A DNA stretch of 38,111 nt, taken from assembly GCA_964419615.1 (NCBI GenBank), contig CAYQPU010000014.1, positions 1-38,111 on the forward strand, read 5' to 3'. Both the position numbers and the translations under genes were made by a program. The stretch's first letter is position 1; each line of letters begins with the position of its first letter. The notes beneath the pieces are model-generated. The model did not search any database, was not told the origin of the DNA, and saw only the letters and a list, made by a program, of their open reading frames with translations. Shown here piece by piece: positions 9,289 through 38,111 of the stretch. This DNA comes from an uncultured Methanosarcinales archaeon. Its GTDB lineage: Archaea; Nanobdellota; Nanobdellia; Woesearchaeales; JAGVZT01.

Positions 9289-9314
9289 TTCTAATGATAA
9301 TTTAGTAAGATATA

Positions 9315-9327: not shown

Positions 9328-9396
9328 GCTTTTCTTGTATTCAAAAACAACATTCACCCAAAACAATTATTAACCCTTTATTTATTTAATAGTACT

Positions 9397-9771: not shown

Positions 9772-9822
9772 CAATCTTGTTTAATGTTAATATTTTTTAA
9801 CATCTGTTAAGTATTTTTAACA
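9768..9822. promoter_or_regulatory. Cluster of TTAACA/TGTTAA half-sites, candidate operator for the MNT-HEPN operon
   Basis: Half-sites at 9768, 9785, 9797, 9805, 9817; 9797-9810 is TTAACA-TC-TGTTAA. Confidence 0.4.
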
Positions 9823-9856
9823 AAATATATATATCATTAATAGTTATTTTATCTGT

Positions 9857-13284: not shown

Positions 13285-13298
13285 AAATTTCATATGTG

Positions 13299-13470
13299 AA
13301 ATCCAGCCAACCACGGCAGCTGTCGGCCAAAGCCTTGCTTTGTCCTCGTTCGACATTCGCCTCACCAGCGCCATGCCTGGATTTTAAGCAATGATGTTGG
13401 CCGGGCGAGGCATATGCCGAGTAGGGCTCGTGTTACGAGACCGTCCGTGCCTGTATCATCATCGCCGACC
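13299..13470. ncRNA. Unidentified GC-rich structured element (candidate ncRNA or cis-element)
   Basis: 99/170 G+C over 13301-13470, versus ~30% in sampled flanking coding lines. Stems: AAATCCAG 13299-13306 / CTGGATTT 13377-13384; CTCGT-GTT-ACGAG; GGCGA/TCGCC; palindrome GGCATATGCC. Confidence 0.55.
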
Positions 13471-13486
13471 AATAAAAAACAATAAA

Positions 13487-15516: not shown

Positions 15517-15531
15517 AAAAAAGATCTATTC

Positions 15532-16113
15532 CTAATATTCTGGTACAGGATGTGATCTTACTAGTTCACATTTGATGAATTTTGTTAGGTCATAATGTTT
15601 TATATCTGTTAGACCTGGAACAACACTTGAAAGACTATCTACTGGTGTTCCATCGCTGTAAACCTGTTGAGTTAAAAGGATTTCCGTATCTCTTACTTTT
15701 GCTACATATCCTACAACTTGAACTCCTTTACCAAATAGCTCAATCCTTTGACCTTCAACACCTTGCCCTAATGACTCTTCTGTTATACTTCCTACATGAG
15801 TAACTGAAGGTTCATCTGTTAGAAAAGTTCCTTTTATTTCAAAGTCTTGGTATGCTAATAGATCATACACTACCCAATCACTTAAGTTTGGAGCTGCATG
15901 TGACTTAAGGTCTACAGGTGTCCCATCACTAAAAATATGCTGTGATAATGCGATCCGCTTTGCGTCAAGAATTGCGACGTATCCAACAGTTTGTACACCG
16001 TCACCAAACATTTCTATTCTATAGCCCTCAATATCTTGCCCTAAATTGTCTTTTGTTAGCACACCTACCAAACTAGCAGGTGGTTCGTCCAGTTTAAAAT
16101 CATCTATATTCAT
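15532..16113 (-). CDS. Hypothetical protein made of two ~85-aa internal repeats
   Basis: LGQDIEGYRIEMFGDGVQTVGYVA...FSDGTPVD versus LGQGVEGQRIELFGKGVQVVGYVA...YSDGTPVD. Confidence 0.75.
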   Translation of the reverse strand: MNIDDFKLDEPPASLVGVLTKDNLGQDIEGYRIEMFGDGVQTVGYVAILDAKRIALSQHIFSDGTPVDLKSHAAPNLSDWVVYDLLAYQDFEIKGTFLTDEPSVTHVGSITEESLGQGVEGQRIELFGKGVQVVGYVAKVRDTEILLTQQVYSDGTPVDSLSSVVPGLTDIKHYDLTKFIKCELVRSHPVPEY

Positions 16114-16202
16114 AGTTAATGGAAATCAAATTGCGTATTTAAATATTGTGACTATTTAAAAGTGGCGAAAGATTTATAAATTGAGAATCTTCCCCACATA
16201 AT

Positions 16203-16778: not shown

Positions 16779-17819
16779 CTATGGTATCTCAATTACCAAG
16801 GTAGAATCTTTCACACCCCACGGTTCATCTGTGGTTACGTTCAAGTACAAGTCAATATCAGCTTCGTCATTAGCTTCTGTGTTATTCAACTCATACAGCA
16901 AGCTGACATTGTAACTTGTCATGTTAGTCCATGTGATTTGTGATAATGATCTGTTAAAGGATCCAGCTTCTGTCCTGTCATCTACTTTGAACATGAAGTG
17001 TGATGTATTCAGTAGAGCATCTGGATGTGTGAACAAGGTATCGTTCGCATATATTGTCAAGTTCACTGGGATGTTACCAATGTTTCTTACTCTTAGAGGC
17101 ACTGGGTTATCATCTACAGTTGAGTTAGTTCTTGTCCAATTCAGGACTGATGCGTTGACTGAGTCACAGAATGCTCCACATGAGAACATCTCGCCGAAGT
17201 CAGTTACGTTCACAACCATCTCAATTGCCTGGTAACTTTCAATTGTAAAGTTCCAGATTGAGCTGTTCACTCTGTACGTGCCATCATATACTTCAACTCT
17301 CCAGAAGTACATCATATCTACTTTCAACTCAGTTGAACTTGTAATATTCTCAGCTACTGTGATGTTTGTATATACTGGACTTGTTAGATCAGATGAGTTA
17401 CTGACCCAGATTGTGAACTCAAGTGGATCATTATCTGCATCTTCTCCGCTCCAGGTGAACTCTGTGAATTGCTCATGTATACTATCGTTTCCGTTAGTTG
17501 GAGTGAGTAATGTTATTGTAGGCTTACTATCAGTCTCTGCTCCACTCCAGAATCCTAAGGAGGTCTGGTAATTACTACTCTCACTATCTCCAACTAATAC
17601 TTGTGATATAGAGGCGTCCGTGCTATAGGTTGCAGAGCTAATTGGGACTCCTCCGCTTGATATTAGCGTTAGCTTGGAATCATAATTACTTCCAAGCGTG
17701 ATGAATGGTTGGGATAGACCAACCATTAAAACCATCATCAAGAGGATTATAGGTAAGACTACTAGCTTTTTGTCTACCTTAAACCTTTTCTCCGTCCGTG
17801 GCTTAGGTGGTCTAATCAT
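16779..17819 (-). CDS. Secreted or membrane-anchored glycoprotein with Ig/fibronectin-III-like domain
   Basis: Basic N-terminus plus hydrophobic helix; PTITLLTPTNG...FTWSGEDADNDPLEF...YFWRVEVYDG; many N-x-S/T sequons. Confidence 0.7.
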   Translation of the reverse strand: MIRPPKPRTEKRFKVDKKLVVLPIILLMMVLMVGLSQPFITLGSNYDSKLTLISSGGVPISSATYSTDASISQVLVGDSESSNYQTSLGFWSGAETDSKPTITLLTPTNGNDSIHEQFTEFTWSGEDADNDPLEFTIWVSNSSDLTSPVYTNITVAENITSSTELKVDMMYFWRVEVYDGTYRVNSSIWNFTIESYQAIEMVVNVTDFGEMFSCGAFCDSVNASVLNWTRTNSTVDDNPVPLRVRNIGNIPVNLTIYANDTLFTHPDALLNTSHFMFKVDDRTEAGSFNRSLSQITWTNMTSYNVSLLYELNNTEANDEADIDLYLNVTTDEPWGVKDSTLVIEIP

Positions 17820-18252
17820 TCTTTTTCATATTCTTCTTTCTAGCTCGATCGTAAACAGTCCAAACAGTCTTGGAGCTCCTGCCTAGAAGCTCAGCTATCT
17901 CAGAATTCTTGAGGCCGCAGTCATCACGAAGATAAACTACAACAACCTCAAGAATTGACAAAGAGCGGTCACGCAAAACAGAAATCGGAATTTGGACTAG
18001 TGGAACATCAGTGGGCGGCGAGAAAATATCATCACCAAGTTTTTTAGCCGCCCTGTTGTAAAGAGTCCAGATGTTTCTCTGGTCACGATTTAGCTGTTTT
18101 GCGATTTCCGCATAAGTCAATTTGTGGATCTCTTTTAGATAAACCACAACTGACTCAAGAAACGACAAACGTCGCTCCAAAAAAATAGAGCTTGGGAGAA
18201 GTATTTCTACAGAAAAGTCACTGTCCCTACTAGAATTTGCTCTATTCATCAA
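17812..18252 (-). CDS. Tandem helix-turn-helix (sigma-70 region-4-like) DNA-binding protein
   Basis: Two repeats: LTYAEIAKQLNRDQRNIWTLYNRAAKK and LKNSEIAELLGRSSKTVWTVYDRARKK. Confidence 0.8.
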   Translation of the reverse strand: MMNRANSSRDSDFSVEILLPSSIFLERRLSFLESVVVYLKEIHKLTYAEIAKQLNRDQRNIWTLYNRAAKKLGDDIFSPPTDVPLVQIPISVLRDRSLSILEVVVVYLRDDCGLKNSEIAELLGRSSKTVWTVYDRARKKNMKKND

Positions 18253-18420: not shown

Positions 18421-18591
18421 ATGGTTAGAGTAGTTGAGAATTATGGCCAATACAAGATCACTATTCCAAAGGATCTAGCAGAAGATAAAGGCTGGAAATC
18501 AGGCACAGTTCTAAGATTTGTTGAAGATATGCAAGGCAGAGTTTTTATCAAAGTAGTTAGAAAATCAAAAAATGAAAAAACCAAAAAATAG
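18421..18591 (+). CDS. AbrB/MazE/SpoVT-family DNA-binding protein (56 aa; below ORF-track cutoff)
   Basis: MVRVVENYGQYKITIPKDLAEDKGWKSGTVLRFVEDMQGRVFIKVVRK...; fits the G.itIPk......g...G..l.f pattern; overlaps the giant ORF start by 20 nt. Confidence 0.85.
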   Translation: MVRVVENYGQYKITIPKDLAEDKGWKSGTVLRFVEDMQGRVFIKVVRKSKNEKTKK

Positions 18592-21500
18592 ATACAAAGT
18601 AAAAAATCCAGAAAAGTACTTTTATCTAAAGAACGGTAGAGTAATCAAGAGTCTTGAAGAACTCCCTTATGCAATCAGAGTTATCAACCAATCAGAATTC
18701 TCAGAACATGTAAATGAAAAGAAAAATGACTTTGCAAACTGGGTCAAACATGTATTTGGAAAAGAAGCACTAGCAAAATCTCTAAATAACAAAACCTCAA
18801 AAGAAGAATTTACACGAGAAATAGACAATTACCTAAACAAAGATAGAACTCATTCATTCTCAAGTGCAATCATCGCAACAGCAATAATCTTTATGATCCT
18901 AATTGCAGGACTATTTGTATTAAAACCAACTATCACAGGATTTGTAGTGCAAGAAGAACTAACAAAGTACACCAATGAATTAAACCTGCAGATTAATGAA
19001 AGTGGAGCTTTCCAACTCGACATGCCAGTCCAAGGAGAATTAACATCATTTACAATAACTGGACAATTAATAGGAAATGGAACTGCAAGTGTATACTTTG
19101 AGGACAAATTAGTGTACAACTCAAAGAAAAATCTGATTAACTCAATAACAGGATTAATAGCTGGCAATGAAAAACAAGTAAAACTAAAAAACAAAACAAA
19201 ACAAAAGCAAGACAACAATACCAATCAAAGCATCAATAACTCAAACAACTCAGAAGAGCAGCCAAAAGAAACACAAAAACAAGAAACTGATGAAGTGATT
19301 ACTACAGAATTCTCAGATATATGTCAGGAAACCTGTTCACTAAATATAAACAAGACCTCCTATACAATCTCATATAATATTGAAAACGTCAAGCTGTTAA
19401 TTAAAAACATCTCTTACACCCTTAGAACTAAAGAGGAGGTTGACAATGAACCTCCTCTTTTTGTTCTTACAGATGAATTAGTGGCGAAAGGAGAACAAAC
19501 ATATGATCTTAATCAATTCTTTGACGATCCTGATAAAGACTCTTTAGTATTTGTCACACTAGATACTGAAAACTTGACACTTGATGTAAATAACAATATC
19601 TTAACAGTTTCTCCAGATCAAGGGTTTGAAGGAAAAAGAGAAATAACTGTTTTTGCAAGTGATTCATATAGCACAGTCAAAGACAAAATTCAAATTGTAG
19701 TTGTAAATGAAAGTTTTCAGGTTGGGGAAATTGTTGTTGAAATTCCAAAAGAAGAACCAAAAGAACAACAACAAGAAAACACAACCCAAAAACAAAACAC
19801 AACTGTAGAAGCAAACCAAACAATTGAGCAAAACACAACAGAAATCATATTTCAAAATGAAACAGTAAACTTGACTACTCAAACAAATCTAACTGATATT
19901 AATTTAACTCTACTTAATGCTAGTGAACTAAACATCACAGATCAAGATCTAGAAGAAGAGCTTGCAAACCTAACACAGATGCAGGCTGAGGTGGGAAAAC
20001 CTGTTAAATGGGTAAAAGAGGTAAGTGCAATTAATCTTGGACCTTCACCTAAGCCTGTCATCTTTTCTTTAGACATTCCACTTGAATCAACAAATATTGT
20101 AATTAAAGAAAAAAGAAGCGGGAACACTGTATCAAAAGAACTTAAAGTCAAAGAAATAAAAGATAAAAAAGAGAAAAAAGCAAAACGAATATCATTCCAG
20201 CACACACTAGAACCTGAATATATTGCTGAATTTGAAATAGAATTTGAAACAGAATCTCCAAAACTAGAAGAAAAACAAGCAGTAACAGACATCAGATATA
20301 CAAAAGAAATTGTAATCAAATCAAATGCCTCTGTACACTACAAAAATGTGATGGCTTTTACAGATATTGCAGAAGCACCACAAAACATGATTAAATTATA
20401 TCATGTGGTGAATGGAACTCGAACAGAAGTACAAATTGATGTTTACAATGACACTAATGAAAACGGAAGAATTGATAGAATACATTGGACAGTACCAATG
20501 CTAAGCGAGCAAAGTTATGAAGTAAGCATTGACATACTGAACCTGCAAAGCAACCCACAAGTTGGCAGCTATTGGACAACAAACTTTGTCACAGTTGGAC
20601 AGGCAGATCTAACAATTAATGGTTCATCAGGCACAATATATGGCACAGATCTTGAATTTGTAGAATTAAAATGTGGAGACACTGTTGTTAATACAAACTA
20701 TGATGGAAACAAAGTCCAAGTCTCAAACTATCAATGTGATGAAACATCCCACCACAAAGTAAGAGTAATCACATCTGGAAAACACACTCAAAAATTCATG
20801 TTTGGTGGAGCAGTAGGATATGCAAATAACTTTGCAAGCGAATTACCAAGCACACTTAATATTCAGGGTAAATTAACAAACTCAACAGGCGGACTAGTAA
20901 ATGCATCAGCTGATTTTGTATTTAGAATATATAATGTGAGCTCTGGAGGAACAGCGCTTTGGACTGAGGCTCAGACTTTAACAGTTGATACTGGAATTTA
21001 TGACGCAATCCTAGGCTCTGTAACTGCTATCACACTAGAATTTGATGTACCGTATTATCTTGGTGTTGAAGTAAACAGTGATGGAGAAATGAGTCCAAGG
21101 TTAAACTTGACAAGCGCCCCATATGCAAGAAGAGCACACAAAGCAGAAATGGCACTATTAGTTGAAAACAATGTTGTTGGAAGTGATCAATTAAATGATA
21201 CTGAATGTAGTGATGGTGAAGTTTATAAAAAATCAGGAGGTACTTGGGTTTGTGCTCTTGACTCTGGCCTAGGAACTGAATCAGACACTCTTGAAACTGT
21301 TGCTAATAGAAGTTCAGTAACCACGCATGGCTTAACAATAGATAGTGATGGAAACAATCTAACAAATATTTCAAGCACATTCTATGTTGATGGTAACCAA
21401 AGTAAAGTTGGTATACTAACAGCAAGCCCTTCATCTGAATTTCAGGTTATAGGTACTGGAAACTTCTCAACAGATGTTATAGTAGCAGGCCAGAGTGTAT

Positions 21501-24500
21501 GCCAAGAAGATGGAACCAATTGTCCAGCAGGAGCAGGGTCTGTTAGTCCATGGACAAATGACTCAAGCAACATCTATCCATTATATAGTAACCTAAATGT
21601 CTCAATGGACAACAATCTATTTTTCATGCATCCTGTATTAAATAGAATTGGTCTGAACACATACTTTCCAACTGTACTATTAGATATTAATGGTAGTATG
21701 AATGTAACCTCATTAACTGGGATGGTCTCAACTCCGACTTTGTGTTTAAATGGGAGTTGTAGAGCCACTTGGCCCTCAGGTACAATCACAGGATCAGGAG
21801 CAATAGATACAATCACCTTTTGGACTGGAACAACTTCAATAAGTTCAAACACAAACCTAACCTGGAACAACAGCCTCAGCAGATTAGGAATTAAAACCAC
21901 ATCTCCCTCACATGAACTAGCAGTTGTTGGCACAGCCAATATAACCGGAGATGTTATAGTTGCAGGCCAGAGTGTCTGTCAAGAAGATGGAACCAACTGT
22001 CCAGCAGGAGCAACCTCAGTAAGCCCATGGATTAATGACTCAAGTGACATATACCCATCAAGTAGTCTGAACATAACAGTAGACACAAACCTAATGTTTA
22101 TCCACCCAGGTATTGATAGAATTGGAATTGGCACAATGTATCCTTCAACAAAATTAGATGTCAATGGTTCAATTAACATAAGTGATGCAAGTGCAAGTAT
22201 GTACACTCCCGAGCTTTGCTTGAATGGTAGCTGTAGAGGAGATTGGCCAGCCGGAACAATCACTGGATCAGGAGCAATAAATACAATAACCTTCTGGACA
22301 TCAGCAACTACAATTAGCTCTAATACAAACTTAACCTGGAACAATACAATTAGTAGGTTAGGAATAAAAACCATGTCTCCTTCTCATGAATTAGCAATAG
22401 TTGGAACAGCCAATGTAACAGGAGATGTTATTGTTGCAGGTCAGAGTGTCTGTCAGGAAGACGGAACCAACTGTCCAGAAGGAGCAACATCAGTAAGTCC
22501 CTGGACTAATGACTCAAGTGACATATATCCCTCAAGTAGTTTGAACATAACAGTTGACACAAATCTAATGTTCATACACCCAGGCATTGACAGAATAGGA
22601 ATTGGGACGGTAAATCCAGCAACAAAACTAGATGTGTTTGGAGATATAAATGTAAGCAGTGCTATATCTGGAGTTTACACACCTCAATTATGTTTAAATG
22701 GCAGCTGTAGATCCACTTGGCCAGCTGGTACAATCACAGGAGCAGGAGCAGCAGATGCAGTAACATTTTGGACAAGTGATAGTTCAATCAGTTCAGATTA
22801 TAATCTAACTTGGAACAACACTCAAAAAAGATTAGGAATAGGAACAAGTTCGCCAGCAGCACCAGTACATATAACAGGAATGGCATCAGGATATGATGCA
22901 AGTCCATCACTAATAATAGACACACTCTCAAACACAGTTGCAGATCTATTATATAATGCTCAAAATGTTCAAAAATGGATAATCTCTATGAGAGATGCAG
23001 CAGCAGACAATGATCTAAGATTCTACAGATACAATGGGTCATGGCAACCTGTTTTAGTCTTAAACAGAACAAAAGGCTATGTTGGAATCGGAACCATTAC
23101 TCCAAAAGCTTTAATGGACATAGGTGGAGGAGTAGCAAACTTTATTGATGGAGCTAATGACTTACTTGTAAGAAACGATGTTGAAATAGATGGCAACCTT
23201 TATGTTGGTGGTAACATAAGTGGAAGCCTTGGTGCAACAGATATTCAAGACATCTGGGTGAATGAATCAGGTGATACAATGAATGGTTCACTAACATTTA
23301 ACAATGTAGCAAAAGACATTGAAACCCCAGCATCTCAGAACTTTGTAATATTCCCTGGAGCAAATGTTGGAATTGGAACAACCGGACCTTCAGTAAAACT
23401 AGATGTTAATGGATCAATAAATGTAAGTGACAGTACAGGTTCTTTACATACTACACAAGTATGTTTGAATGGCAGCTGTAGAGGAGATTGGCCAGCCGGA
23501 ACCATTACTGGATCAGGACTTGCAAACAGAACTGCATTTTGGCTATCAGCAACAGAATTAAGTTATGATGGAAACTTTACTTGGGACACAACAGCAAAAA
23601 GATTAGGAATAGGAACAGACTCACCATCACATGAATTATCAGTAATTGGAACAGCCAATGTATCAACAGATGTAATCGTTGCAGGTCAGAGTGTATGTCA
23701 AGAAGATGGAACAAATTGTCCGGAAGGAGCAACCTCAGTAAGCCCATGGACAAATGACTCAAGTAATATTTATCCAGTTGGAGATCACAATGTAACAGTT
23801 GACACTAATCTATTATTTGTCCACCCTGGAATAGATAGGATTGGAATCAATACAATCTACCCTACAACAGAACTTGAAATAAATGGATCATTAAATGTGA
23901 CAGGATCCACAAGTTCAGTCTTTGCAACACAATTATGCCTGAATGGAACTTGTAGAGGAGACTGGCCAGCAGGAACAATCACAGGCTCAGGATCAATAGA
24001 CACAGTAACATTTTGGACAAGTGAAACATCGATAGGATCTGATTCAAACTTCATATGGAATAATACAGACAAAAGACTCGGAATCGGAATGGGTTCTCCA
24101 TCTCATGAACTAGCAGTTTTAGGTTCAGCAAATGTAACTTCAGATGTAATAGTTGGACGAAACTTATCTGTAAATGGTACAGGTACTTTTAATGAAGAAG
24201 TAAAAGTTGCAGGACAAAGTGTATGTAGAGCAGATGGAACAAACTGTCCAGCAGGAGCAACCTCAGTAAGTCCTTGGGTTAATGATTCTAGTGATATCTA
24301 CCCAACAAGCATATGGAATGTTACAATAAATAACACACTGTTCTTTGCAAACCAAGTATTATATAGAATAGGAATTGGGACAGCTGGACCAAACGCACTA
24401 TTTGATATTGGTGGAGGAGTAGTAAGTTTCATTGATGGAGTTGATGATTTATTAGTAAAGGGAGATGCAGAAATTGATGGAAGTCTATGGGCTGAAAACA

Positions 24501-27500
24501 ACATCTCTGCAAATATTGTATCTGGAAACACAATCATAGGTAACATTAGTGCAGGTTATGTAGAAGATATTTGGGTAAACACTTCAGGAGACAACATGAC
24601 AGGGAGTCTTCAGTTTACAAAAGTAACAGAAGACATCAAAACAAATGCTTCAGAACATCTTGCCTTAATGCCTGGAGGCAATGTTGGAATAAAAACAACA
24701 AATCCTTCACACGACTTCACAGTATTAGGAGATGCAAATATTAGTTCAGATTTAATAGTCGGAGGCGTGGGTAATTTCACAACAGATGTACAAGTTGCTG
24801 GAGAAAGCGTATGTCAAGAAGATGGAACAAACTGTCCAGCAGGAGCAACCTCAGTAAGTCCTTGGGTTAATGATTCTAGTGATATCTACCCAACAAGCAT
24901 ATGGAATGTTACAATAAATAACACACTGTTCTTTGCAAACCAAGTATTATATAGAATAGGAATTGGGACAGCTGGACCAAACGCACTATTTGATATTGGT
25001 GGAGGAGTAGTAAGTTTCATTGATGGAGTTGATGATTTATTAGTAAAGGGAGATGCAGAAATTGATGGAAGTCTATGGGCTGAAAACAACATCTCTGCAA
25101 ATATTGTATCTGGAAACACAATCATAGGTAACATTAGTGCAGGTTATGTAGAAGATATTTGGGTAAACACTTCAGGAGACAACATGACAGGGAGTCTTCA
25201 GTTTACAAAAGTAACAGAAGACATCAAAACAAATGCTTCAGAACATCTTGCCTTAATGCCTGGAGGAAATGTCGGAATAAAAACAACAGATCCTTCTCAT
25301 GATCTTACTGTACTAGGAGATTCAAATGTTAGTTCTAACCTTTATGTTGGAGGAGATGCAATAGTTGAGGGTGTTGGTAACTTCACCACAGATGTTCAGG
25401 TTAGTGGTCAAAGTGTATGTCAGGAAGATGGCACCAATTGTCCAGAAGGCGCAACCTCAGTAAGTCCCTGGACCAATGACTCGAGTAAAATATATCCATC
25501 AAGCAGCTTGAATGTGACTGTTGACACTAACTTGCTATTTATACATCCCGCCATTGACAGAATAGGTATTAATACAATCTACCCTACGACAAAGCTTGAT
25601 GTAAATGGTTCAATAAATATAAGTGATGCTAGTGCCAGTATGTACACTCCACAACTTTGTTTGAACGGAACATGTAGGGGAGACTGGCCACAAGGAACTT
25701 TGACTGGAGCAGGAGCAGCAGATACAATAACTTTTTGGACTGGAGAAAGTACAGTCAGCTATGATTATAACTTGACTTGGAATAACACTCAAAAAAGATT
25801 GGGGATCGGAACTTCAGAGCCAAGCCATGAATTGGCTGTTGTTGGCTCGGCAAACATAACTTCAGATATAGTTGTGGGAGAAAACCTGACAGTTTCAAAT
25901 ACAGGTACATTCACTCAAGACGTAATAATTGCTGGCCAAAGTGCATGTAGAGAAGATGGCACAAACTGTCCAGAGGGAGCTTCTTCAGTAAGTCCATGGA
26001 TCAATGACACCACAAAAGTTTATCCAAGAGACATATGGAATATTACAATAAACAACACCCTATTTTTTGCAAACCAGTTCCTTGATAGGATAGGAATTGG
26101 AACTGCAGGTCCTAATGCATTATTTGATGTGGGCGGGGCAACTTTAAGTTATGTGGATGGTGTAGATGATTTGATAGTAAAAGATGATGTTGAATTAAAT
26201 GGTGCCCTTTATGTTGGTGGGGCAAATGAAAGTGTGATTGGCAGTGGTGGTCTGTCTCTTGAAGGAAATCTTACAATGAATGATCAGAACATATTTGATG
26301 CTGGAACAGTGCAGGCAAACATTCTCACTGATCCTGATGATGCAGTATTAACAGTTGATGATGACCTTGCACTAACTTCTGGAGACCAGATCACCTTCCC
26401 TAGTGAAGACACAGATAAAATATACTGGAGCGGAACTGATTATGGGACAGGAATTGAAGCAAACACACTAACATCTTGGGCAGTTGCGCAGTTCCGATGG
26501 AGAATAGGTGGAACAACTGCAGGAACAGGTAATGAAACAATGACCTTAGATAGCGCTGGAGATCTAAGTGTTGACGGTGCACTCAGTGTTGGAGATACTA
26601 CTCCTGATGGAAATAATTATCATACCTTTGGAACAGGAGATGCAGATGAAGTTGAAATTAATGGAACAAGTGATGTGTACATATCTGGAGATCTTGAAAT
26701 AGATGGCATATTTTATGGTCTCATTGAAGCCTCAAATGTTGTAGATATCTGGGTAAATGAAACAGGAGACACCATGAGTGGAAACCTGAATATGTCTGAT
26801 ACAAATATCACAGATATTAACATAATAATTGTTGATACAATTACTGACAAAGACTCCTCAATCACAATAGATGATGATCTAGCGCTCACATCACAAGATC
26901 AAATTTCATTTGTAAGTGAAGTAGCAGACAAAATACTTTGGAGTGGAAACACATATGGAACCGGAGTTGAAGCAAACACACTCACTTCATGGTCAGCAAA
27001 CCAATTTAGATGGAGAACCGGTGGAACAAATGTTTCAACTGGAACAGAAATAATGAAAGTGGATAGGGGAGGTAATCTAAGCATAGATGGCCTACTCTCT
27101 GTTGGAGACACCTCACCAGACGGAAACGAATACCACACATTTGGAGTAGGAGATGCAGATGAATCAGGAATCAATAGTACTGATGATGTTTATGTAAGTG
27201 GAAACTTAGAAATTGATGGAACATTCTATGGGACAGTTGGGGCTGGAAATGTAGAGGACATTTGGGTAAATGCGAGTGGAGATACAATGACTGGCAACCT
27301 AACAATGGCTGACAGCCACATATTTGATGCAAACATAATCGAGGCAAACACACTAAGAGATCCTGAAGATGAAGCAATAACAATTGCAGACAACTTATCC
27401 ATGGGTTCAACAAACAGCATAGTATTTGCAAGCGAAAATGGAAACAAGATCTTTTGGAGCGGAACTGGTTATGGAACAGGTGTAGAAGCAAGTGCTTTAA

Positions 27501-29086: not shown

Positions 29087-32000
29087 TGGAGAATGGGTGG
29101 AGTTGCTGTAGATGGTGGTACTGAAACAATGTTGTTAGATAACACTGGAGATCTTAGTATTGATGGTGTGTTAAGTGCAGGAGATTCAAGTCCTGATGGA
29201 AACGCTTACCACACATTTGGAATTGGAGATGCAGATGAAAGTGGAATTAATGGAACAGATGATGTTTATGTAAGTGGAGATTTGGAAATTGATGGAACCT
29301 TCTTTGGAACAATCGAAGCAACCACGGTTGTAGACATTTGGGTCAATGAATCCGGAGATACTATGACTGGCAACCTGACAATGGCAGACAGCAATATATT
29401 TGATGCCAACACCATACAAGCAAACATAATTGAAGATTCAGAAGACAGTAACCTTGTTGTAAATGATGACTTGCAAGTTAGTGGAGAACTGGATGTTGAT
29501 GGCACAGGAGATAGCACAATAGCTGGCAGACTTGTAATGGCTGGCAACATGTCTATGGCAGATAATAATATTCAAGATGCAAATATAGTGCAGGCAAATA
29601 CTCTCCTAGACATTGAAGATAATAACTTGGTTATAAGTGACAATCTTGACATCACAGGGGTGCTAAGCGCAGGAGACTCAACCCCAGACGGAAATGCATA
29701 CCACACATTTGGTACAGGAGATGCAGACGAATCCGGAATTAATGGAAGCGATGATGTTTATGTGTCAGGAGATCTAGAAATAGATGGTACCTTCTACGGT
29801 TCATTATCAGCAGATGTTGTAGAAGATGTCTGGGTAAATGAATCCGGAGACACCATGACTGGTGACCTTAACATGGGAAGCAACAGCATATTGGATGTTG
29901 CAGGAATTCAGGCAAACACAATAGAAGATAATGATGATGGTACTCTTACAATAAATGATGACTTAGCTCTAACCTCTGGTGATCAAATTAACTTTGTTAG
30001 TGAAACAGGAGATAAGATATACTGGAGCGCAAATACTTATGGAACAGGAATAGAAACTAATACTCTGACCTCATGGTCTGCAAACCAGTTCAGGTGGAGA
30101 ACAGGAGGAACTGCAGTAGGAGGAGGTACTGAAATACTATTATTGGATAATACAGGAGATCTAAGCACAGATGGAGTTATATCAGCAGGAGACTCAACTC
30201 CCGATGGAAATGCATATCATACATTTGGAACCGGAGATGCAGATGAAGCTTCTGTTTCAGATGCAGACGATGTATATGTGAGCGGAGATCTAGAGATAGA
30301 TGGTAATTTCTATGGCCAGATTGGAGCATCAAGTGTAGAAGACATCTGGGTAAACGAGACAGGAGACATAATGACTGGCTCCTTGAATATAACATACACC
30401 TCAGATCCCGGACTCAAAGTAGGAGACGGCACAACAGGCTATATTGCAGTTGGAGGCTCAAGCATATATGATGCAGCCGGAGACTTGACTTTAGATTCTG
30501 ATAGCGGAGAAGTATATGTTGCAGATGAATTGGGAATTGGAACCAATGCACCAGTTAGACAATTAGATGTAAGGGGGGATGGTTACTTCGGTAGAGACAG
30601 TGCTCAAACATTGTTAAGGGTTTATCGGGCTGGGGATTGGACAACATCTGGCACAAATATAGGGATTGCATTTGGGGGAAGAGGTGATGGCACACATGAT
30701 AGTGCTTCTGATTATAGAGCAGGAGTGTTTTCTGAGTATAATGGAGATATGTATCTGAGTGCCCAAACAGCGACAGGTATCTTAACAAACCCAAAACTTT
30801 ATTCGAAATTATTTATTGAGGGGAGCAATGGGTTCATTGGAATTGGAGACACAACACCAGATGCAAAATTAGATATATTGCACAATGGATCTGGGGCATC
30901 CTTCAGAGTTGATGATGATAGTGAAACAGACACCACACCATTCATAATAGAAGCAGACGGTGATGTAGGTATAGGGGAGGATGTGCCAACTGGAAAACTT
31001 GAAGTAGAAGGAAACACAGTAATTGATACTCAAACTGGAACATACGGGTTTTATGTGACCAGGTTAGGAGGAACATCTAATCAGTACAATAAAATGTATG
31101 TAAATGATGCTTGGGCTTACTTTATCCATGAGCAAGATGAGGATTCAGGAACAAGAGGAGGATTTATATTTAATATGGATGATGATGGTACACAGGATCC
31201 TCACTTTTACATTCAAACAAAGTCAGGAAGTACAGTATTAGATGTAAATAAATCAGGAAGTTTACTTGCCGATGGAGTTTTGTCTGTTGGTGATAGTTCC
31301 CCAGACGGAAACTCTTATCACACATTTGGTACAGGAGATGCAGACGAAGCAGGAATCTCAGGAGCAGAAGATGTATACATATCAGGAGATTTGGAAATAG
31401 ACGGAACACTATATGCAACAGTCAGCGCAGATAATGTGGAGGATATTTGGGTGAATGAGTCTGGTGATACTATGACTGGAGCATTAACTATTGCTGTTAG
31501 TGCTAATCCAGGTTTAACTGTCAATAATGGAGGAACAGGCTATATCACTCTTGGTGGTTCAAGCATCTATGATGCTGCTGGTGATTTAACACTAGATTCT
31601 GATAGTGGGGAAGTTTATATCCCTGATGAGTTGGGGATTGGAACAGCTTCACCTAGTGCTGCATTGGATGTTGAATTAGTAGGCAGCGGAAAAGCATTAG
31701 AACTTGTTGGTGAAAATCTTGATGTTGACTTGCATCTTGGCCATGATGGATCTTCATATGGATTCTACTGGAGGTACAAAGGAACAGATAGTGGGAATAA
31801 CAATGATCTTGAGCTTTGGGCTAATAACCAAGGTGGTGCAGATGTCCAAGTTTACAATGTACACCAAGATGGAAACATGGGAATTATACAAAATGTAGGA
31901 GTAGGGGACACAGATCCGGATGCAAAACTTGATGTGCTAAACACGGGTTCAGGAACATCTTTCAGAGTGGATGATTCTGCTGATGGTGACACAACTCCAT

Positions 32001-33000
32001 TCATAATAAATGCAAGCGGGGCAGTAGGTATTGGAACTGCCACTCCTAGCTATAAACTTGATGTTAATGGAAATGCAAGATTCACAGGTGATGCTATATT
32101 ACAAGGCAATGATGCTGCTTTAACTATTACTGATGGTGGCTCAAATACACATGTTATTGATAATTGCGATACTAATGAGTTATGTATTGAATCACAGACT
32201 TATGTGAATATAGATGCTAACAAAAATGGGGATAGAGAGGTTGAAATAAAGGAGGATAAAATAAACTTACTGGATAATGCAGAATCTTATGGTTATCATT
32301 ATATCAGAGGAGTCTTATCAGCAGGGGACTTAACCCCAGATGGAAATGCCTATCACACATTTGGAACCGGCGATGCAGACGAGGCAGCAATAACAGATTC
32401 AGAAGATGTTTACATCTCCGCAGATCTGGAAATAGACGGCACATTCTATGGAACAATTGATCCTGGCAGTATTAATGATATCTGGGTAAATGAGTCAGGA
32501 GACACCATGTCTGGAGATTTAAATATGAATGATAATGATATCCAGAATGCACAAAGCCTTTCCTTTAATAATGAAGAGCCATATGGATGGAGCAGTCCAG
32601 GAAGCTCAACAGGCCAGATAGCATATGACCTTTCAGGAGGACTTTGGTTCCATCCTGGAGGAAGTGCATGGGGATCTTACACTAGTGGAACTTGGTATAG
32701 AATAATGGACACAGGCAACACAAGATGGGGGGATCATATAAGCATAGATACGGGAGGAGACTCAACACCAATAACAATAGATGTGGATGATGACTGGGTC
32801 AATGAATCAGGAGATTCAATGTCCGGCGACTTGAATATGTCAGATAATAATATCTATGATGCAAACACAATCCAGGCCAACATATTAGAAGATGGAGAGG
32901 ATGGAGTCTTAACAATAAATGATGATCTGACAGTTTCAGGAGGAGATATCTCAATAACCTCAGCATCATCAAATGCATTTGAAATGTCTGGCTCAGGAGA
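26250..33000 (+). repeat. Degenerate ~172-aa (516-bp) fibre repeat array spanning the internal stop codon
   Basis: Recurring DIWVNxSGDTMTG, FRWRxGG and YHTFGxGDADE motifs, with 516-bp spacing for several units; 72-bp identical stretch at 27131-27202 and 27647-27718. Confidence 0.85.
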
Positions 33001-35395
33001 AGTTGATATTCATTATACCTCAACTGCAGGAGGAGGTACATGGCAGGTTGGTACTGGTTGGGCAGGTGCAAATTATGGAGCAGACAGTTTCTTTTGGTAT
33101 AAAGCAGCTGAGAGGATGAACTTAGATGATGATGGAGATCTTAGGATTACAGGAGATGCTACAGTTGTTGGCGGGAATTTGTATATTGGAGATGATGCAG
33201 AATGGAGAGATAATGGTGTAAACATAATTTACACTCCAGATTCATTAGATGTGGATGGTTATTCTTACTTTGATGGATTTAGGCTAGATTCAACTGCTAA
33301 TATCAACAACAGAAATTTAGATAATATTGGCAGACTTGATATGGCAGACAATGGAATTGGAGAAGGTCTGCAATGGGCAGATGGGGCAATAGATTACAGA
33401 ATTGCGGTTGCATCAGAATCAAAAACAGAAAGCTATGACACATTATGGATAGACAATAATGCTGGCGCAGGAAGATTAAGAATAGATGGATTTGCAAATG
33501 GTGTAATAATCAATGATGCGCACTTTTATGTTTCAACAGGAGATGCATATATCCAAGGAGGAAGTGTGTTTATAGGAGATGACACAGAATTAAGAGATAA
33601 TGGAGCTAACTTAATATATACTCCTGACAGCCTTGATGTAGATGGATATTCTTACTTTGATGGTTTTAGATTAGATTCCACAGCAAATATTAACAATAGA
33701 AATCTTGATAATATAGGCAAGTTAGATATGAATGACGTTGGAATAAATGAAGGTTTACAATGGACAGATGGAGCAGTAGATTATAGAATTGCTGTTGCTG
33801 ATGAATCTAAAGGAGAAATTAATTATGAAACCTTATGGATAGATAATTTTGCAGGTACAGGAAGATTAAGAATAGATGGATTCACAAATGGTGTGTATAT
33901 TAATGACGCAGATCTCACAATAGGAGGAGGAGATATTGCAACAAATGTGATTCCAAGGATAACTCCAATTTATCTCAGAGGAACTGGATTAAACAACAAT
34001 GCAAACAAAATACTTGAAATTGGGAGCTCAACCCAGTATAATACAGGTGGTAGGGGCTTAAGGTTAACAGTTATTAGGAAATCAGATCATGTAATATTAT
34101 CAGATAGTAATTATGATACTTATGGGAGTGCAGCTGCCTCAAACAATCTGGCAACTGCATTGAATGCAATGACAAATGCCCAGATTGGAGTTTTAACTAG
34201 TTATGATGCATGGGAAGCTTCTGTTACTGCGAACTTGGACACAGCATTCCAAAGAAAAGGGTTGTATAAAGCAGCTGTTTCCCCAAATAGTGGTTCAAGA
34301 AGACCTTATGCTGCCATATTTGAAGGAGCCAGTAGCTCAGAATATAGTGACAAAGCTGTTGAGTGTTTATTAGATGATACAGTTAACCAACCTTATTGTG
34401 AAATAAGGGGATGGTTAATTGATGGGTCTTTTACTGCTACTGGAACTACTAAGAATACATTAACAAATACACAAGGCACTTCAGCAGGAGTTGTTGTAAA
34501 TGAAGCAGGTGCAGTTGGTTTGGGAACGATCAGTCCTTCAGGCGGTGCAGGAGATCTGACAGTTATGGGAGATAATGTTTACTTTGGGACTAGTATACCA
34601 TATATAACAGGATCAGGAGCATACATTGACTGGAACGCAGACCATGCAACAGTTTCAGGAATGAGATTTTATAACAATGGAGCCTCATTATATGGTTATA
34701 TATACGGAACAAGCTCATACTTTGGACTATTAAACAATGCAGGAAACTGGGGAATTCGAATACCAAGCGGAACCCAGAATGTACAAGTATTAGAAGACCT
34801 TTATGTGGGATATAACAGCGGCTCAGATAATGACTATGTTTACTTTGACCAGAGTAACGAATACCTTGCATATGATGATCCAAGTGCAACAGATATTGGG
34901 GGAACTGGAACAGGAAGATTTGAATTAAGTGATGATTTAGAAGTTGAAGGAAATGTCAGGCCATCAGGAGCATTAGCAGACAACTATCATTTGATTGGAG
35001 TCACAACTTTGTTTGGGAATGCTGGTCAGAGAGCATTCAGAACAACCTCAACCTCATTTCAACAATTTTCAGAAGTTTATGGTCCTTTCAGTTATTCAAT
35101 CCCAACATGTCCATCTGGAACAACAGTCCAGTACAAATTATATGTAGAATATGTTGACAGTATGACAACATCTGGAAGCTCAACTTTGAGAATCGACTTT
35201 TCTTCAGGAACAGATAGAGACTTTACCTTATCAAGAACATGGGGAGCATCACCTTATTTTAGAAATTACCTCTCCTCATTTTTCACAGAATCAAACACAA
35301 ACCATGCAACATTACAAATAAGATTAAACAGTCCAACACCACCTAGTGCATATATAGAATTAAGATTAGCACAACTTTGGACTTACTGTACATAA
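29087..35395 (+). CDS. Giant surface protein, part 2 (in frame with part 1): fibre repeats, GIGT..P modules, ILEI/PANDER-like domain, C-terminal tip domain
   Basis: 29093-18572 is divisible by 3; the repeat continues across the TGA (AIHF*WRMGG); no signal peptide at Met 29093. Confidence 0.85.
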   Translation, partial: WRMGGVAVDGGTETMLLDNTGDLSIDGVLSAGDSSPDGNAYHTFGIGDADESGINGTDDVYVSGDLEIDGTFFGTIEATTVVDIWVNESGDTMTGNLTMADSNIFDANTIQANIIEDSEDSNLVVNDDLQVSGELDVDGTGDSTIAGRLVMAGNMSMADNNIQDANIVQANTLLDIEDNNLVISDNLDITGVLSAGDSTPDGNAYHTFGTGDADESGINGSDDVYVSGDLEIDGTFYGSLSADVVEDVWVNESGDTMTGDLNMGSNSILDVAGIQANTIEDNDDGTLTINDDLALTSGDQINFVSETGDKIYWSANTYGTGIETNTLTSWSANQFRWRTGGTAVGGGTEILLLDNTGDLSTDGVISAGDSTPDGNAYHTFGTGDADEASVSDADDVYVSGDLEIDGNFYGQIGASSVEDIWVNETGDIMTGSLNITYTSDPGLKVGDGTTGYIAVGGSSIYDAAGDLTLDSDSGEVYVADELGIGTNAPVRQLDVRGDGYFGRDSAQTLLRVYRAGDWTTSGTNIGIAFGGRGDGTHDSASDYRAGVFSEYNGDMYLSAQTATGILTNPKLYSKLFIEGSNGFIGIGDTTPDAKLDILHNGSGASFRVDDDSETDTTPFIIEADGDVGIGEDVPTGKLEVEGNTVIDTQTGTYGFYVTRLGGTSNQYNKMYVNDAWAYFIHEQDEDSGTRGGFIFNMDDDGTQDPHFYIQTKSGSTVLDVNKSGSLLADGVLSVGDSSPDGNSYHTFGTGDADEAGISGAEDVYISGDLEIDGTLYATVSADNVEDIWVNESGDTMTGALTIAVSANPGLTVNNGGTGYITLGGSSIYDAAGDLTLDSDSGEVYIPDELGIGTASPSAALDVELVGSGKALELVGENLDVDLHLGHDGSSYGFYWRYKGTDSGNNNDLELWANNQGGADVQVYNVHQDGNMGIIQNVGVGDTDPDAKLDVLNTGSGTSFRVDDSADGDTTPFIINASGAVGIGTATPSYKLDVNGNARFTGDAILQGNDAALTITDGGSNTHVIDNCDTNELCIESQTYVNIDANKNGDREVEIKEDKINLLDNAESYGYHYIRGVLSAGDLTPDGNAYHTFGTGDADEAAITDSEDVYISADLEIDGTFYGTIDPGSINDIWVNESGDTMSGDLNMNDNDIQNAQSLSFNNEEPYGWSSPGSSTGQIAYDLSGGLWFHPGGSAWGSYTSGTWYRIMDTGNTRWGDHISIDTGGDSTPITIDVDDDWVNESGDSMSGDLNMSDNNIYDANTIQANILEDGEDGVLTINDDLTVSGGDISITSASSNAFEMSGSGEVDIHYTSTAGGGTWQVGTGWAGANYGADSFFWYKAAERMNLDDDGDLRITGDATVVGGNLYIGDDAEWRDNGVNIIYTPDSLDVDGYSYFDGFRLDSTANINNRNLDNIGRLDMADNGIGEGLQWADGAIDYRIAVASESKTESYDTLWIDNNAGAGRLRIDGFANGVIINDAHFYVSTGDAYIQGGSVFIGDDTELRDNGANLIYTPDSLDVDGYSYFDGFRLDSTANINNRNLDNIGKLDMNDVGINEGLQWTDGAVDYRIAVADESKGEINYETLWIDNFAGTGRLRIDGFTNGVYINDADLTIGGGDIATNVIPRITPIYLRGTGLNNNANKILEIGSSTQYNTGGRGLRLTVIRKSDHVILSDSNYDTYGSAAASNNLATALNAMTNAQIGVLTSYDAWEASVTANLDTAFQRKGLYKAAVSPNSGSRRPYAAIFEGASSSEYSDKAVECLLDDTVNQPYCEIRGWLIDGSFTATGTTKNTLTNTQGTSAGVVVNEAGAVGLGTISPSGGAGDLTVMGDNVYFGTSIPYITGSGAYIDWNADHATVSGMRFYNNGASLYGYIYGTSSYFGLLNNAGNWGIRIPSGTQNVQVLEDLYVGYNSGSDNDYVYFDQSNEYLAYDDPSATDIGGTGTGRFELSDDLEVEGNVRPSGALADNYHLIGVTTLFGNAGQRAFRTTSTSFQQFSEVYGPFSYSIPTCPSGTTVQYKLYVEYVDSMTTSGSSTLRIDFSSGTDRDFTLSRTWGASPYFRNYLSSFFTESNTNHATLQIRLNSPTPPSAYIELRLAQLWTYCT

Positions 35396-35499
35396 ATAAA
35401 AAAGACAAAAATGTAGAGATTATTCAAAAGTAGTCACATAAATTATATTAATATGTTAACAAAAAAGAATATATTAAGGGGGAAAAAGAGGTAATTCAA

Positions 35500-38111
35500 A
35501 TAAACAAAAATAGTTTATTTTGGAGAATAGTAGTTATCTTTATATTTATAATTAGCTTAGTCTCTTTTGCAAGTGCAGTCCCAATTGTATATTATGATGC
35601 TGACAAAGACCAATTTATTACTGATAAAGACTTGATTGTTACCACCCAGAGAATTATCCTGGGAAGTGATGAAAACTTGATATTAGCAAGAGGAAGCGGA
35701 TATGCCCTTAGAGTAATAACCGAATCAGGCTGGGGGGATCTTGGCTCAATGAACTCAGGCTGGTTCCACCTGCAGACAGACAGGCCAAGGTATTATTTTA
35801 ACAAAGAGGTAAGGGTGGACACAGGTCTGATCGGAAGCTATAATGAGGATCTACAATTAAGAAGAGCCGGAACTACAAAGTTAAACCTGCAAAGCGGAAA
35901 AGCTGATTTTGCTGATGATATTGAGACCAGCTCTGGAGGAGCATATGGTTATGGTGCAATTTGTGGAACATCAGGAACCCAATGCTTAAACTTTAGAAAT
36001 AATGGGTGGGTATATTTGTCTAATACACAAGGAAGTGTATATGGCGGCCAGGGAGTTGCAATGGGAAATCTATGGTCACAAGGAACTTCCTATTTAATTG
36101 GTACAACAAACATAAGAGGACCTATTAGAAATGATGGGGGTTCATATGGTGGTGCTGTGTATATCAATGACCCTTTAACAGTTGTTGGTACTTTTACATT
36201 TGGAAGTGCTACAACAGATAGGCTATACAAAGCTTCAGCCTCACCAGGTGGGTCTGATCCAACTCTGATTGGGGCTCAGAGTGAGTGGAGCCAGGGAGAA
36301 GTTCCCATTATTTCCTTAGGTTACGAGCAGGGAGTTAATTCAGGAACAGATATGGATACAAAAATCTGGTCTTATAGACGAAATCCTTCTGAGTCTTACA
36401 ATTACCTAACCATTGGGAGAAATAGACTTTCATCATCTGGAAATTTTTATGTTGAGAAAGATACTCCTATCATTCGGGTAGTTGATACTGGCGAAAGTAA
36501 TAAGTATATTGAGATGAGATACCAAAGTGGTTGGGGTAGGTTATATAGCTCAAGTAATATATACACAAATCGAATGTTCAGAGCAGATGGTGGATTAAGG
36601 GTGGGTAACGATGAGGGATGGTATAGATATTCTGAGGATGTAATTGCTCCTTATTATGATCATATTAATATGAGGGGATATAGAATAGAAGGATTGGGAG
36701 ATCCTAATAGTGGAGATGATGCAATGGATAGAGACTATGCAGACAGCAGATATCAAAGAAGACAGTCTAATTCTGGTTCAGTTTCTTCTGGTAATTGGTA
36801 TAGAATTGCATCAAATTCTGGAAACCGGGCTAATGCAGAGTTTACTTTAAGGGATTATATCAGTGGAGGAGGGCATTCCACTCTAACTTTTAGGTTGGGT
36901 ATCTCTTATAATGACGCTGGAGGAATTAGTTTTACTGTCTTAAATCATAACAGGTATAGTACTGCCACATTCAGATATGTAAGAATATGTGAAAAATCAA
37001 CTTATGACCCAATGTATGTTGAAGTCTATGTTCAAAGGAGTGGTAGTGTTGATTATTCTATATATGATAATTATCAGAGTTCAGGATGGACACCTGTAGA
37101 CTGGCAATCAGTAGGTAACTGCCCAAGTGGTTATACATCGCGACAATATGATGTGGACAAGATTTTTGTGGTTGGAGACTACTCCAGAAGGTTTGATATA
37201 AGCAGAGGAGGTAATGCTTATTTTTCAAATGATTTAACTGTCGCAGGCGGAGATATATATAATAATAATGGAAATTACCGTTGGTCAGCAGGAGGTAACT
37301 GGAATACGTTTTATACTCCTTCAGGATATATCCAGCTTGGACCTGCGAATAGTGGTTGGGCTCATATTTACTCAAATAAAAACTTCTATTTTAATAGGCC
37401 CCTATACAGATCTGGAAACCTCGTTTGGGATGCTGGAAATGATGGTTCTGGCTCAGGACTAGATGCTGATCTTCTTGATGGTCAGGATGCTTCTTATTAC
37501 TCACAAACAGATGGATACTTGCCAGATGATCCTGCAACCAGCAATGTGGATATGAATGGATATAGTATAACAGGACTAAATTTAATCCAAGACACCTGCT
37601 CAGAAACCTATAATGACTATTGTGTGCAAGGAGACTGGTCTGTTGGAGGCACTGGTGAAAACCTTGAATTCAGAGAGCCAGAAGATGGAAATAAATTATG
37701 GGCATATATCCAGGATGATTGGGGATATAGAACATCTGGTGCTCCAAACATTGGAGTTGGCGGAGTAATCCAATTTGATGGAGATAGTAACAGACAAATT
37801 TATGGTGCTTCAAGAAGTGGTAGTGATACAGTTGTTTTGGATGGGAGGTGGGATGAGCTTGAAGTTAAAGGAAGAGTTATTGACTGGACTGGAAGCAACT
37901 TGCATATAGGATATCAGAGAAGCCATTCTGGTCATTCTATTTATATGGGAGATGGAGGATTAACCAAAGTTCATATTAGAGGAGGAGCTTACCTTAGAGT
38001 AGATAATGATGTTTATGTAGGCTCAAGTTCAGGAGATAATAGTGCTGATTTATGGATAGCAGATAAGATGTATGACTGGGACAACACAGGCTATTATGTT
38101 GATCCCGCAAG
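35500..38111 (+). CDS. Partial secreted phage-tail-fibre-like mosaic protein (non-canonical ATA start proposed; runs off window end)
   Basis: Frame 1 is open from after TAA 35449-35451 to the window end. GAGGT at 35488-35492 precedes ATA 35500, giving MNKNSLFWRIVVIFIFIISLVSFASA-VP. Contains GSGSGLDADLLDG, GDPNSGDDAMDRDYAD and DNTGYYVDPA motifs. Confidence 0.85.
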   Translation, partial: MNKNSLFWRIVVIFIFIISLVSFASAVPIVYYDADKDQFITDKDLIVTTQRIILGSDENLILARGSGYALRVITESGWGDLGSMNSGWFHLQTDRPRYYFNKEVRVDTGLIGSYNEDLQLRRAGTTKLNLQSGKADFADDIETSSGGAYGYGAICGTSGTQCLNFRNNGWVYLSNTQGSVYGGQGVAMGNLWSQGTSYLIGTTNIRGPIRNDGGSYGGAVYINDPLTVVGTFTFGSATTDRLYKASASPGGSDPTLIGAQSEWSQGEVPIISLGYEQGVNSGTDMDTKIWSYRRNPSESYNYLTIGRNRLSSSGNFYVEKDTPIIRVVDTGESNKYIEMRYQSGWGRLYSSSNIYTNRMFRADGGLRVGNDEGWYRYSEDVIAPYYDHINMRGYRIEGLGDPNSGDDAMDRDYADSRYQRRQSNSGSVSSGNWYRIASNSGNRANAEFTLRDYISGGGHSTLTFRLGISYNDAGGISFTVLNHNRYSTATFRYVRICEKSTYDPMYVEVYVQRSGSVDYSIYDNYQSSGWTPVDWQSVGNCPSGYTSRQYDVDKIFVVGDYSRRFDISRGGNAYFSNDLTVAGGDIYNNNGNYRWSAGGNWNTFYTPSGYIQLGPANSGWAHIYSNKNFYFNRPLYRSGNLVWDAGNDGSGSGLDADLLDGQDASYYSQTDGYLPDDPATSNVDMNGYSITGLNLIQDTCSETYNDYCVQGDWSVGGTGENLEFREPEDGNKLWAYIQDDWGYRTSGAPNIGVGGVIQFDGDSNRQIYGASRSGSDTVVLDGRWDELEVKGRVIDWTGSNLHIGYQRSHSGHSIYMGDGGLTKVHIRGGAYLRVDNDVYVGSSSGDNSADLWIADKMYDWDNTGYYVDPA

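Follow-up and report, generated by a model that had tools for sequence, protein, structure and literature searches.

Cell-borne fibres built from phage-tail-fibre modules, with or without a Peptidase_S74 (S74) domain, are already known from Bdellovibrio bacteriovorus (PMC10769870). Its mosaic adhesive trimer (MAT) fibres combine a conserved beta-rich N-domain of ~130 amino acids (aa), located after the signal peptide, with a homotrimeric intertwined shaft and a variable C-terminal tip that does or does not carry S74, and they bind partner-cell glycans at the surface (Caulton et al. 2024; PMC10769870). S74 phage fibres cited in the same work include T5 pb1 and the K1F endosialidase (PMC10769870). 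Here we describe two adjoining genes, g1 and g2, in a 38,111-bp stretch of archaeal DNA (the window), which is the entire contig C14 of a 1.48-Mb genome bin of 64 contigs with a marker completeness of 99%, in which an archaeal small-subunit ribosomal RNA was detected. We propose, with a probability of about 0.7, that g1 and g2 belong to the chromosome of a marine DPANN-type (Woesearchaeota-like) archaeon and encode trimeric cell-surface fibres, the membrane-anchored archaeal counterpart of MAT fibres. New here are a giant of 5.6 thousand residues anchored by a transmembrane helix, an adjoining S74 partner, a positive model of the predicted trimer and a polarity of glycosylation sequons along the fibre; no paper describing such S74-type cell-borne fibres in archaea was found in the literature searched.

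The likeness to MAT fibres, an analogy already drawn in an initial annotation of the window, lies in chromosomal genes for cell-borne fibres of the phage-tail-fibre type, in a pairing of a member with S74 (g2) and one without (g1), in mosaic, interchangeable distal modules and in an intertwined trimer, which is predicted here. Unlike MAT fibres, those described here belong to a single-membrane archaeon, g1 is 5-6 times longer, its anchor is an N-terminal transmembrane helix, and a sequon-rich stalk in g1 is set against sequon-free tips. The Bdello_MAT_N family gave a sub-cut-off match in g1 (NCBIfam 24.9 bits, cut-off 60) that lies far from the N-terminus (aa 752-819, nt 20825-21028) and none in g2.

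Phage long tail fibres of the S74 type (e.g. PDB 6f45) share with g2 the C-terminal S74 domain with its SDxxxK motif, and their shaft and tip modules are homologous to those described here; unlike them, g1 and g2 are not virus-encoded, begin with a membrane anchor or signal peptide where the phage fibres bind the baseplate, and are only 26-42% identical to the phage proteins. The same module vocabulary is used by 'tail fiber domain-containing', PTL_trimer and ILEI proteins of Bacteroidota, Patescibacteria, Saccharibacteria and DPANN archaea, many of them with S74, but these are 0.5-2.4 thousand residues long and have one or two modules each in common with g1 or g2. In nanohaloarchaeal SPEARE, a single giant protein unites a serine protease, adhesion domains and a restriction endonuclease. 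Like g1 and g2, SPEARE and the products of the giant genes of Omnitrophota (bioRxiv 10.1101/2023.11.21.568195) are very large, exported and repetitive, and they come from organisms with small genomes that are suspected to interact with other cells. They bring together several kinds of enzyme domain, among them protease, nuclease and glycosyl hydrolase, whereas family scans detected none of these in g1 or g2 apart from the S74 of g2. The Omnitrophota preprint does not contain the terms 'tail fib', 'S74' or 'trimer'.

The frame of g1 runs on the plus strand from 18572 to 35395 (5,607 codons) and is interrupted by a single in-frame TGA at 29084-29086. Together with g2, it comprises the following parts.

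18572-18931, plus strand: basic N-terminal domain (aa 1-92) and transmembrane helix (aa 97-120) of g1, a signal-anchor.
18947-21283, plus strand: base of the stalk (aa 126-904), non-repetitive and sequon-rich, with a weak match to the Big_9 Ig domain.
21284-26251, plus strand: Cys-paired family (aa ~905-2560), units of 79/158 aa with IWVNxSGDxMTG connector modules interspersed.
26252-30451, plus strand: His/acidic family (aa 2561-3960), eight tandem units of 172 aa, an intertwined homotrimer by model.
30452-33958, plus strand: mixed distal shaft, a super-repeat of ~350 aa followed by two 129-aa repeats.
33959-34456, plus strand: ILEI/FAM3-like (POMGnT1-stem-like) lectin-fold module (aa 5130-5295), modelled by AlphaFold2 with a predicted local distance difference test score (pLDDT) of ~90.
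34457-35392, plus strand: sequon-free C-terminal end (aa 5296-5607), the presumed tip, without S74.
35500-38111 (window end), plus strand: g2, continuing at 56-3838 of contig C36, with a signal peptide at aa 1-26.
36757-37227, plus strand: conserved globular module of g2 (aa 420-576), with homologues in bacterial S74 fibres.

The initial annotation had reported a 5607-codon frame and a partner of more than 870 codons. Both frames are present, at 18572-35395 and from 35452 to the window end, although the first is broken by the TGA. The two successive repeat families described at the same time were recovered at 21.3-26.25 kb and 26.25-32.85 kb, and every listed motif count was reproduced: ten HTFGxGDADE-like, 13 GDxMTGxL, 14 RLGIGT-like, six CLNGxCRxxWP and eight CxxDGTNCP copies, and, within the window part of g2, one each of GSGLDADLLDG, NTGYYVDP and DP....DA....Y.D. 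The ~350-aa super-repeat occurs at aa 3954-4320 and 4321-4700, and further HTFG units carry the His/acidic copies on to about aa 4760 (26.25-32.85 kb); the two 129-aa repeats lie at aa 4832-5090. Export signals had been assigned to both proteins. That of g2 is a signal peptide, while g1 has no cleavable signal; its sole hydrophobic helix lies at aa 97-120 and is therefore read as a signal-anchor, in keeping with the proposal that the locus is cell-anchored. The preceding domain (aa 1-92) has a weak, sub-cut-off DUF5752-like match (E 8.9e-4) and recurs in relatives both as small stand-alone open reading frames (ORFs) and at the N-termini of larger ones.

Modelling the repeats as trimers, which the initial annotation had put forward as a check, favoured a fibre over a monomeric non-fibre fold for the one family covered. 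A homotrimer model of g1 aa 2726-3050 (325 aa of His/acidic repeats) scored 0.81, compared to 0.00 for the best control. The mark used for this complex score is reached by 20 of 30 proteins solved as one-chain pairs and by one of 23 solved as single chains; the trimer model, built from its own shallow alignment and three copies, lies outside that calibration. The runs agreed in at least 94% of contacts with a partner pLDDT of at least 92; contacts between chains numbered about 1,550 and were spread over residues 9-302 of the modelled segment. Because the contacts extend along the whole length, the predicted pattern is that of an intertwined trimeric shaft rather than of beads touching at one face. 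The model thus supports, and does not demonstrate, trimerisation of the His/acidic shaft. An AlphaFold2 monomer model of two 172-aa repeats was uninformative (mean pLDDT 58, predicted template-modelling score 0.27). The fibre-like character of the Cys-paired family is suggested by matches to phrog_5906 (E 1e-43) and to phrog_9942, 'tail fiber protein' (E 9e-19), by 28% identity to the distal tail fibre of Thermus phage phiFa, and by the presence of its units inside or beside S74-carrying ORFs of related archaea (for example in genomes G166, G058 and G162).

The frame of g2 is open from 35452, and no ATG, GTG or TTG occurs in it before 35632. An ATA at 35500 follows a GAGGT Shine-Dalgarno sequence by 7 nt and gives a signal peptide ending in FASA, with 870 codons from there to the window end; this is the probable start. 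A standard gene call at the TTG at 35632 would drop the signal peptide. The window ends in 55 nt that are identical to the start of contig C36 and occur in no other contig, and the frame stays open on C36, in the same motif style (NxGYYxxP, ICLDNGCRRTWP), until position 3838. Including this part, which spans two 100-N scaffold gaps, g2 encodes at least 2,061 aa. Its last piece holds a Peptidase_S74 domain (PF13884; 72.1 bits, E 4.6e-20, cut-off 22), whose assignment to g2 depends on the C14-C36 join; an SDRRLK motif and a coiled-coil tail accompany it, and the piece matches the long-tail-fibre chaperone structure PDB 6f45 (E 8.6e-7). Since the frame continues to this domain, g2 is an S74-type fibre. 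The initial annotation saw no S74 and advised looking for it downstream; within the window it is indeed absent, but it lies just beyond. In phage and Bdellovibrio MAT fibres, Peptidase_S74 is an intramolecular chaperone that drives trimer folding and then cleaves itself off, and g2 may be autocleaved in the same way.

Sequons are distributed with a marked polarity. In aa 126-2560 of g1, 111 were observed against 41.8 expected from shuffling, a 2.7-fold enrichment, followed by 34 (21.8 expected) in aa 2561-3960 and none (11.3 expected) in the last 847 aa. The 2,061 known residues of g2 likewise hold none against 27.4 expected, so that sequons, earlier ascribed to both proteins, are a property of g1 only. 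No shuffle was as low in sequons as the last 847 aa of g1 or as g2, and the named bacterial homologues of the same modules carry them at expectation. With AglB/STT3 encoded in the genome, this pattern suggests a glycosylated stalk and distal parts kept free of sugar by selection, which would fit folding and binding surfaces and would connect the tip of g1 with g2. The polarity amounts to a simple sequence rule that separates stalk from working end in archaeal fibres.

We next consider the relatives of the individual modules. 'Tail fiber domain-containing' S74 proteins of Bacteroidota (Chitinophagales) and other bacteria share the g2 module (aa 420-576) at 65-71% identity and have it immediately before the S74 domain. 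Phages of Rossellomorea, Salinibacter and Vibrio have tail-fibre or tail proteins that match it at 34-40% identity, as does, within the same range, a hypothetical protein of the archaeal tailed Halorubrum virus Serpecor1. The ESM Atlas clusters nearest to this module are bacterial and viral (0.93 and 0.91), which are leads only. The ILEI module of g1 scores below the cut-off for PF15711 (22.5 bits, cut-off 27), a family carried by its close homologues. Its fold matches FAM3B/C and the carbohydrate-binding POMGnT1 stem in the PDB (E ~1e-5, template-modelling score 0.65-0.78 normalised to the target) and, in BFVD, tail fibres, receptor-binding proteins and T4-type gp35 hinge connectors. In sequence, it shares 50-60% identity with proteins of Bacteroidales, Chitinophagales, Elusimicrobia and an Aenigmatarchaeote in which PTL_trimer and/or S74 is present as well, and 37-42% with Bacillus phage tail fibres. 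Three Patescibacteria genomes hold Cys-paired units at 53-59% identity. The 172-aa unit has few relatives, with only 67 matches at E<=1e-3 among 1.84 billion cluster representatives; its best matches outside this genome are a partial protein of a Woesearchaeota archaeon and a Saccharibacteria protein. His/acidic repeats gave no match to cultured phages, PDB sequence searches with shaft segments and g2 gave no or chance-level matches, and scans of IMG/VR with g2 and the Cys-repeat alignment found no relatives, a weak negative from patterns built of near-identical internal repeats.

Overall, cellular fibre proteins (Bacteroidota, candidate phyla radiation (CPR) bacteria and other DPANN archaea) are 50-71% identical to the modules, compared to 26-42% for annotated phage proteins. 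The kinship with phage tail fibres proposed in the initial annotation is thus borne out, by PHROG families and phage homologues alike, and the modules are truly of the phage-fibre kind. Their closest known kin, however, are cellular fibres of bacteria and other ultrasmall organisms, so the further proposal that they were domesticated from phage is not demonstrated, and the direction of transfer cannot be told from these identities. The 50-70% identity to CPR and Bacteroidota modules points to a shared pool of fibre cassettes that crosses domains.

The locus lies among cellular genes. Upstream are Nop5, fibrillarin, hypA, a hypC-like gene, an EamA transporter, PIG-L, a beta-CASP RNase, hycI, a four-gene NiFe-hydrogenase set and a helix-turn-helix (HTH) protein, and downstream, on C36, a winged HTH gene, an aldehyde:ferredoxin oxidoreductase (AFOR) gene and further surface-protein genes. 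As had been noted for the window, capsid, terminase and integrase genes were absent, and none of these, nor portal or tail genes, was found by Pfam and PHROGs over 18.5 kb upstream or by Pfam alone over 12 kb downstream; no tRNA was found at the locus. In genome G001, of the same genus, the upstream genes are kept at 66-81% identity and are followed by the first 1,192 aa of g1 at 71%, up to a contig end inside the Cys repeats; at another contig end, the S74 tail (70%) is followed by AFOR (83%). With cellular flanks on both sides and synteny in the congener, the locus is chromosomal and inherited within the genus, not part of a provirus. A search of the whole genome with tblastn found no paralogues of g1 or g2 beyond the N-terminal 69-aa domain, the Big_9-like stretch and the C36 continuation.

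Base modules from the N-terminal part of g1 occur in 39 of 41 related genomes (a count that takes in the unpublished genome G006, on which nothing else here depends), often in giant ORFs of 2,000-11,800 codons, which further supports a cell-anchored protein. The distal parts are more restricted. Among 201 sampled genomes of the order, this one included, S74 was found in 30 (~15%), usually as a single copy, the Cys-paired unit in 23 and the His/acidic unit, weakly, in six; the tandem 172-aa array is all but confined to this genome, and none of 40 relatives had a match to the first 870 aa of g2. Only three proteins of 3.1-9.8 thousand residues scored against g1, one of them its own 3,504-aa ORF, and none has its overall architecture. 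These distributions suggest that a conserved chassis of anchor and base bears lineage-specific, exchangeable distal cassettes, and the frequency of S74-type fibres in the order indicates that the result generalises. In related archaea, S74 genes directly adjoin non-S74 fibre genes that share g1 modules, for example in G034 (C1 8318-11137; 547 aa and 388 aa) and in G162 (C30 5605-14072; 808, 525 and 1,376 aa); such clustering would suit multi-part fibres.

In the arrangement we favour, g1 would be inserted in the membrane by its one N-terminal helix, with the short basic domain staying inside the cell. Three chains would wind into a homotrimeric fibre several thousand residues long, as extrapolated from one modelled repeat family. 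The two thirds of g1 nearest the membrane, dense in sequons, would form a probable sugar-coated stalk, and the sequon-free last ~850 residues, with the ILEI-like lectin-fold module and the end domain, the presumed binding tip. The g2 protein would be exported by its cleavable signal peptide and carry the S74 chaperone at its end. Both proteins may then reach out like cell-mounted tail fibres and bind glycans or proteins on the surface of a partner cell; adhesion is the best functional guess, and only a guess.

The fibres could be real and serve something other than host attachment, for example as a spacer or glycocalyx-like coat, in binding particles or polysaccharides, or as a decoy or shield against viruses. 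This would be in keeping with the extreme sequon richness of the stalk and with the multi-copy occurrence across the order of giant N-anchored proteins sharing the base modules (~30 matches in genome G004), as expected of general envelope proteins. We nevertheless consider it unlikely, given that modules of the receptor-binding type (the ILEI lectin fold and g2 aa 420-576) are placed distally, that the distal parts strictly avoid sequons and that the other known fibres of S74 architecture are receptor-binding ones (PMC10769870). It is far less probable still that the fibre genes make up the tail-fibre module of a provirus or other mobile element. While homology to phage tail-fibre modules, the S74 domain and a G+C content of the fibre genes above the genome mean could be read in that way, no structural or integrase gene was found by Pfam and PHROGs upstream or by Pfam downstream, a tRNA is lacking, housekeeping and metabolic genes lie on both sides in an order kept in the congener, and g1 carries a membrane anchor in place of a virion-attachment domain.

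The in-frame TGA raises another alternative, that g1 has been freshly inactivated, leaving an anchored stump of 3,504 aa as its only product and the distal 2,100 codons to decay; this is compatible with the other readings. Gene callers and the public protein record accordingly give two proteins, of 3,504 and 2,100 aa. The TGA stands at the first Arg of an FRWR motif, where six sister repeats carry AGA, CGA or AGG, and a single base change would turn such a codon into the stop. Recoding was considered and rejected, because TGA is an ordinary stop in this genome, ending 181 of 707 long ORFs. Inactivation would also agree with the lack of an alternative letter at this site in the public contigs of four other marine runs, although these are short and of ~1-5x depth, and their cover of position 29084 is not demonstrated, and with the failure to find the distal part of g1 in the congener. 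On the other hand, the 2,100 codons past the TGA are still open, with conserved repeats and, towards the end, no sequons, so any inactivation would be very recent; a consensus error, or a minority allele in a metagenome bin, is just as possible. A scan of JGI metagenomes for a close relative in which to check the codon returned a single match, at 42% identity. We regard inactivation as improbable.

Several points weigh against the anchored trimeric fibre that we prefer. If genuine, the TGA would remove the distal 2,100 aa of g1, which would themselves lack an export signal, and the four runs, at ~1-5x depth, do not settle the site independently. The join of C14 to C36 is based on the unique 55-nt overlap, frame continuity and synteny, with no spanning read, and the two scaffold gaps lie inside g2. 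Searches of the G001 assembly recovered neither the distal 2,102 aa of g1 nor the N-terminal 870 aa of g2, which may reflect non-assembly of repeats or real divergence. The trimer prediction covers one repeat family, as a homotrimer, from a shallow alignment and outside the calibration of the tool. The g1 tip (aa 5296-5607) gives only a low-confidence fold model and, in the ESM Atlas, only a weak C1q-like viral lead (score 0.79). Finally, the episymbiotic lifestyle is itself an assumption, and the adhesion target is conjectural.

A more speculative extension of the anchored-fibre model, which we think quite unlikely, is that the two proteins join end to end to form a single cell-borne 'long tail fibre' of two segments. 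The anchored, glycosylated trimer of g1 would be the proximal segment and a sequon-free trimer of g2, matured by S74, the distal one; the joint would be the sequon-free tip of g1, whose ILEI module resembles the phage gp35 hinge connectors. The long tail fibre of T4 spans ~145 nm for ~2,900 residues in series, and on this basis the serial fibre might reach perhaps 0.3-0.4 micrometre, a rough estimate that is about the cell's own diameter. If so, the absence of sequons from the g1 tip and g2 would mark surfaces kept free of sugar for assembly and binding.

Little is known of how DPANN archaea locate their partners and keep hold of them. Cryo-electron tomography of cultured DPANN pairs has revealed nanotubes and unexplained filaments, with no adhesin genes identified (PMC11329633). 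The locus described here is a concrete, testable candidate, offering an anchor, a stalk, a tip and a putatively self-processing partner from the set of modules that phages and Bdellovibrio use for cell recognition.

Further observations concern the fibre genes and their surroundings. Within the Cys-paired region, a 430-nt stretch is exactly duplicated (24239-24670 and 24827-25258, 588 nt apart). This may be a recent duplication, gene conversion or a repeat whose copy number is unreliably assembled; given an exact duplicate in a short-read assembly, the repeat copy number of g1 is uncertain. No exactly repeated 24-base module linker was found when looked for in the fibre genes, exact repeats being confined to the Cys-paired units. 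The fibre genes (window 20001-38111) have a G+C content of about 0.37-0.415, compared to ~0.335 for the genome, and a strongly positive GC skew; their Gly/Asp/Thr-rich composition may explain the raised G+C, which does not require a foreign origin.

Two small genes precede g1.

17812-18252, minus strand: one protein with two sigma-70 region-4-like HTH domains, divergent from the fibre genes.
18421-18591, plus strand: AbrB/SpoVT-like ORF of 56 aa (phrog_661, E 1.2e-8), overlapping the start of g1 by 20 nt.

Both are conserved in the congener G001, and regulation of the fibre genes by them is possible. The region downstream of g2 is rich in surface-protein genes. On C36, the plus strand encodes two Big_9 Ig-domain proteins at 12306-16161, one of which resembles g1 aa 290-481, and the minus strand a 1,125-aa ORF without a family match at 6972-10349. 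The NiFe-hydrogenase set upstream consists of Fe-S, FAD/NAD, small and large subunits in a sulfhydrogenase-like layout, with hypA, the hypC-like gene and hycI nearby (3232-4207, 9397-9771 and 11540-15516), a notable metabolic capacity for a DPANN-type genome of 1.5 Mb.

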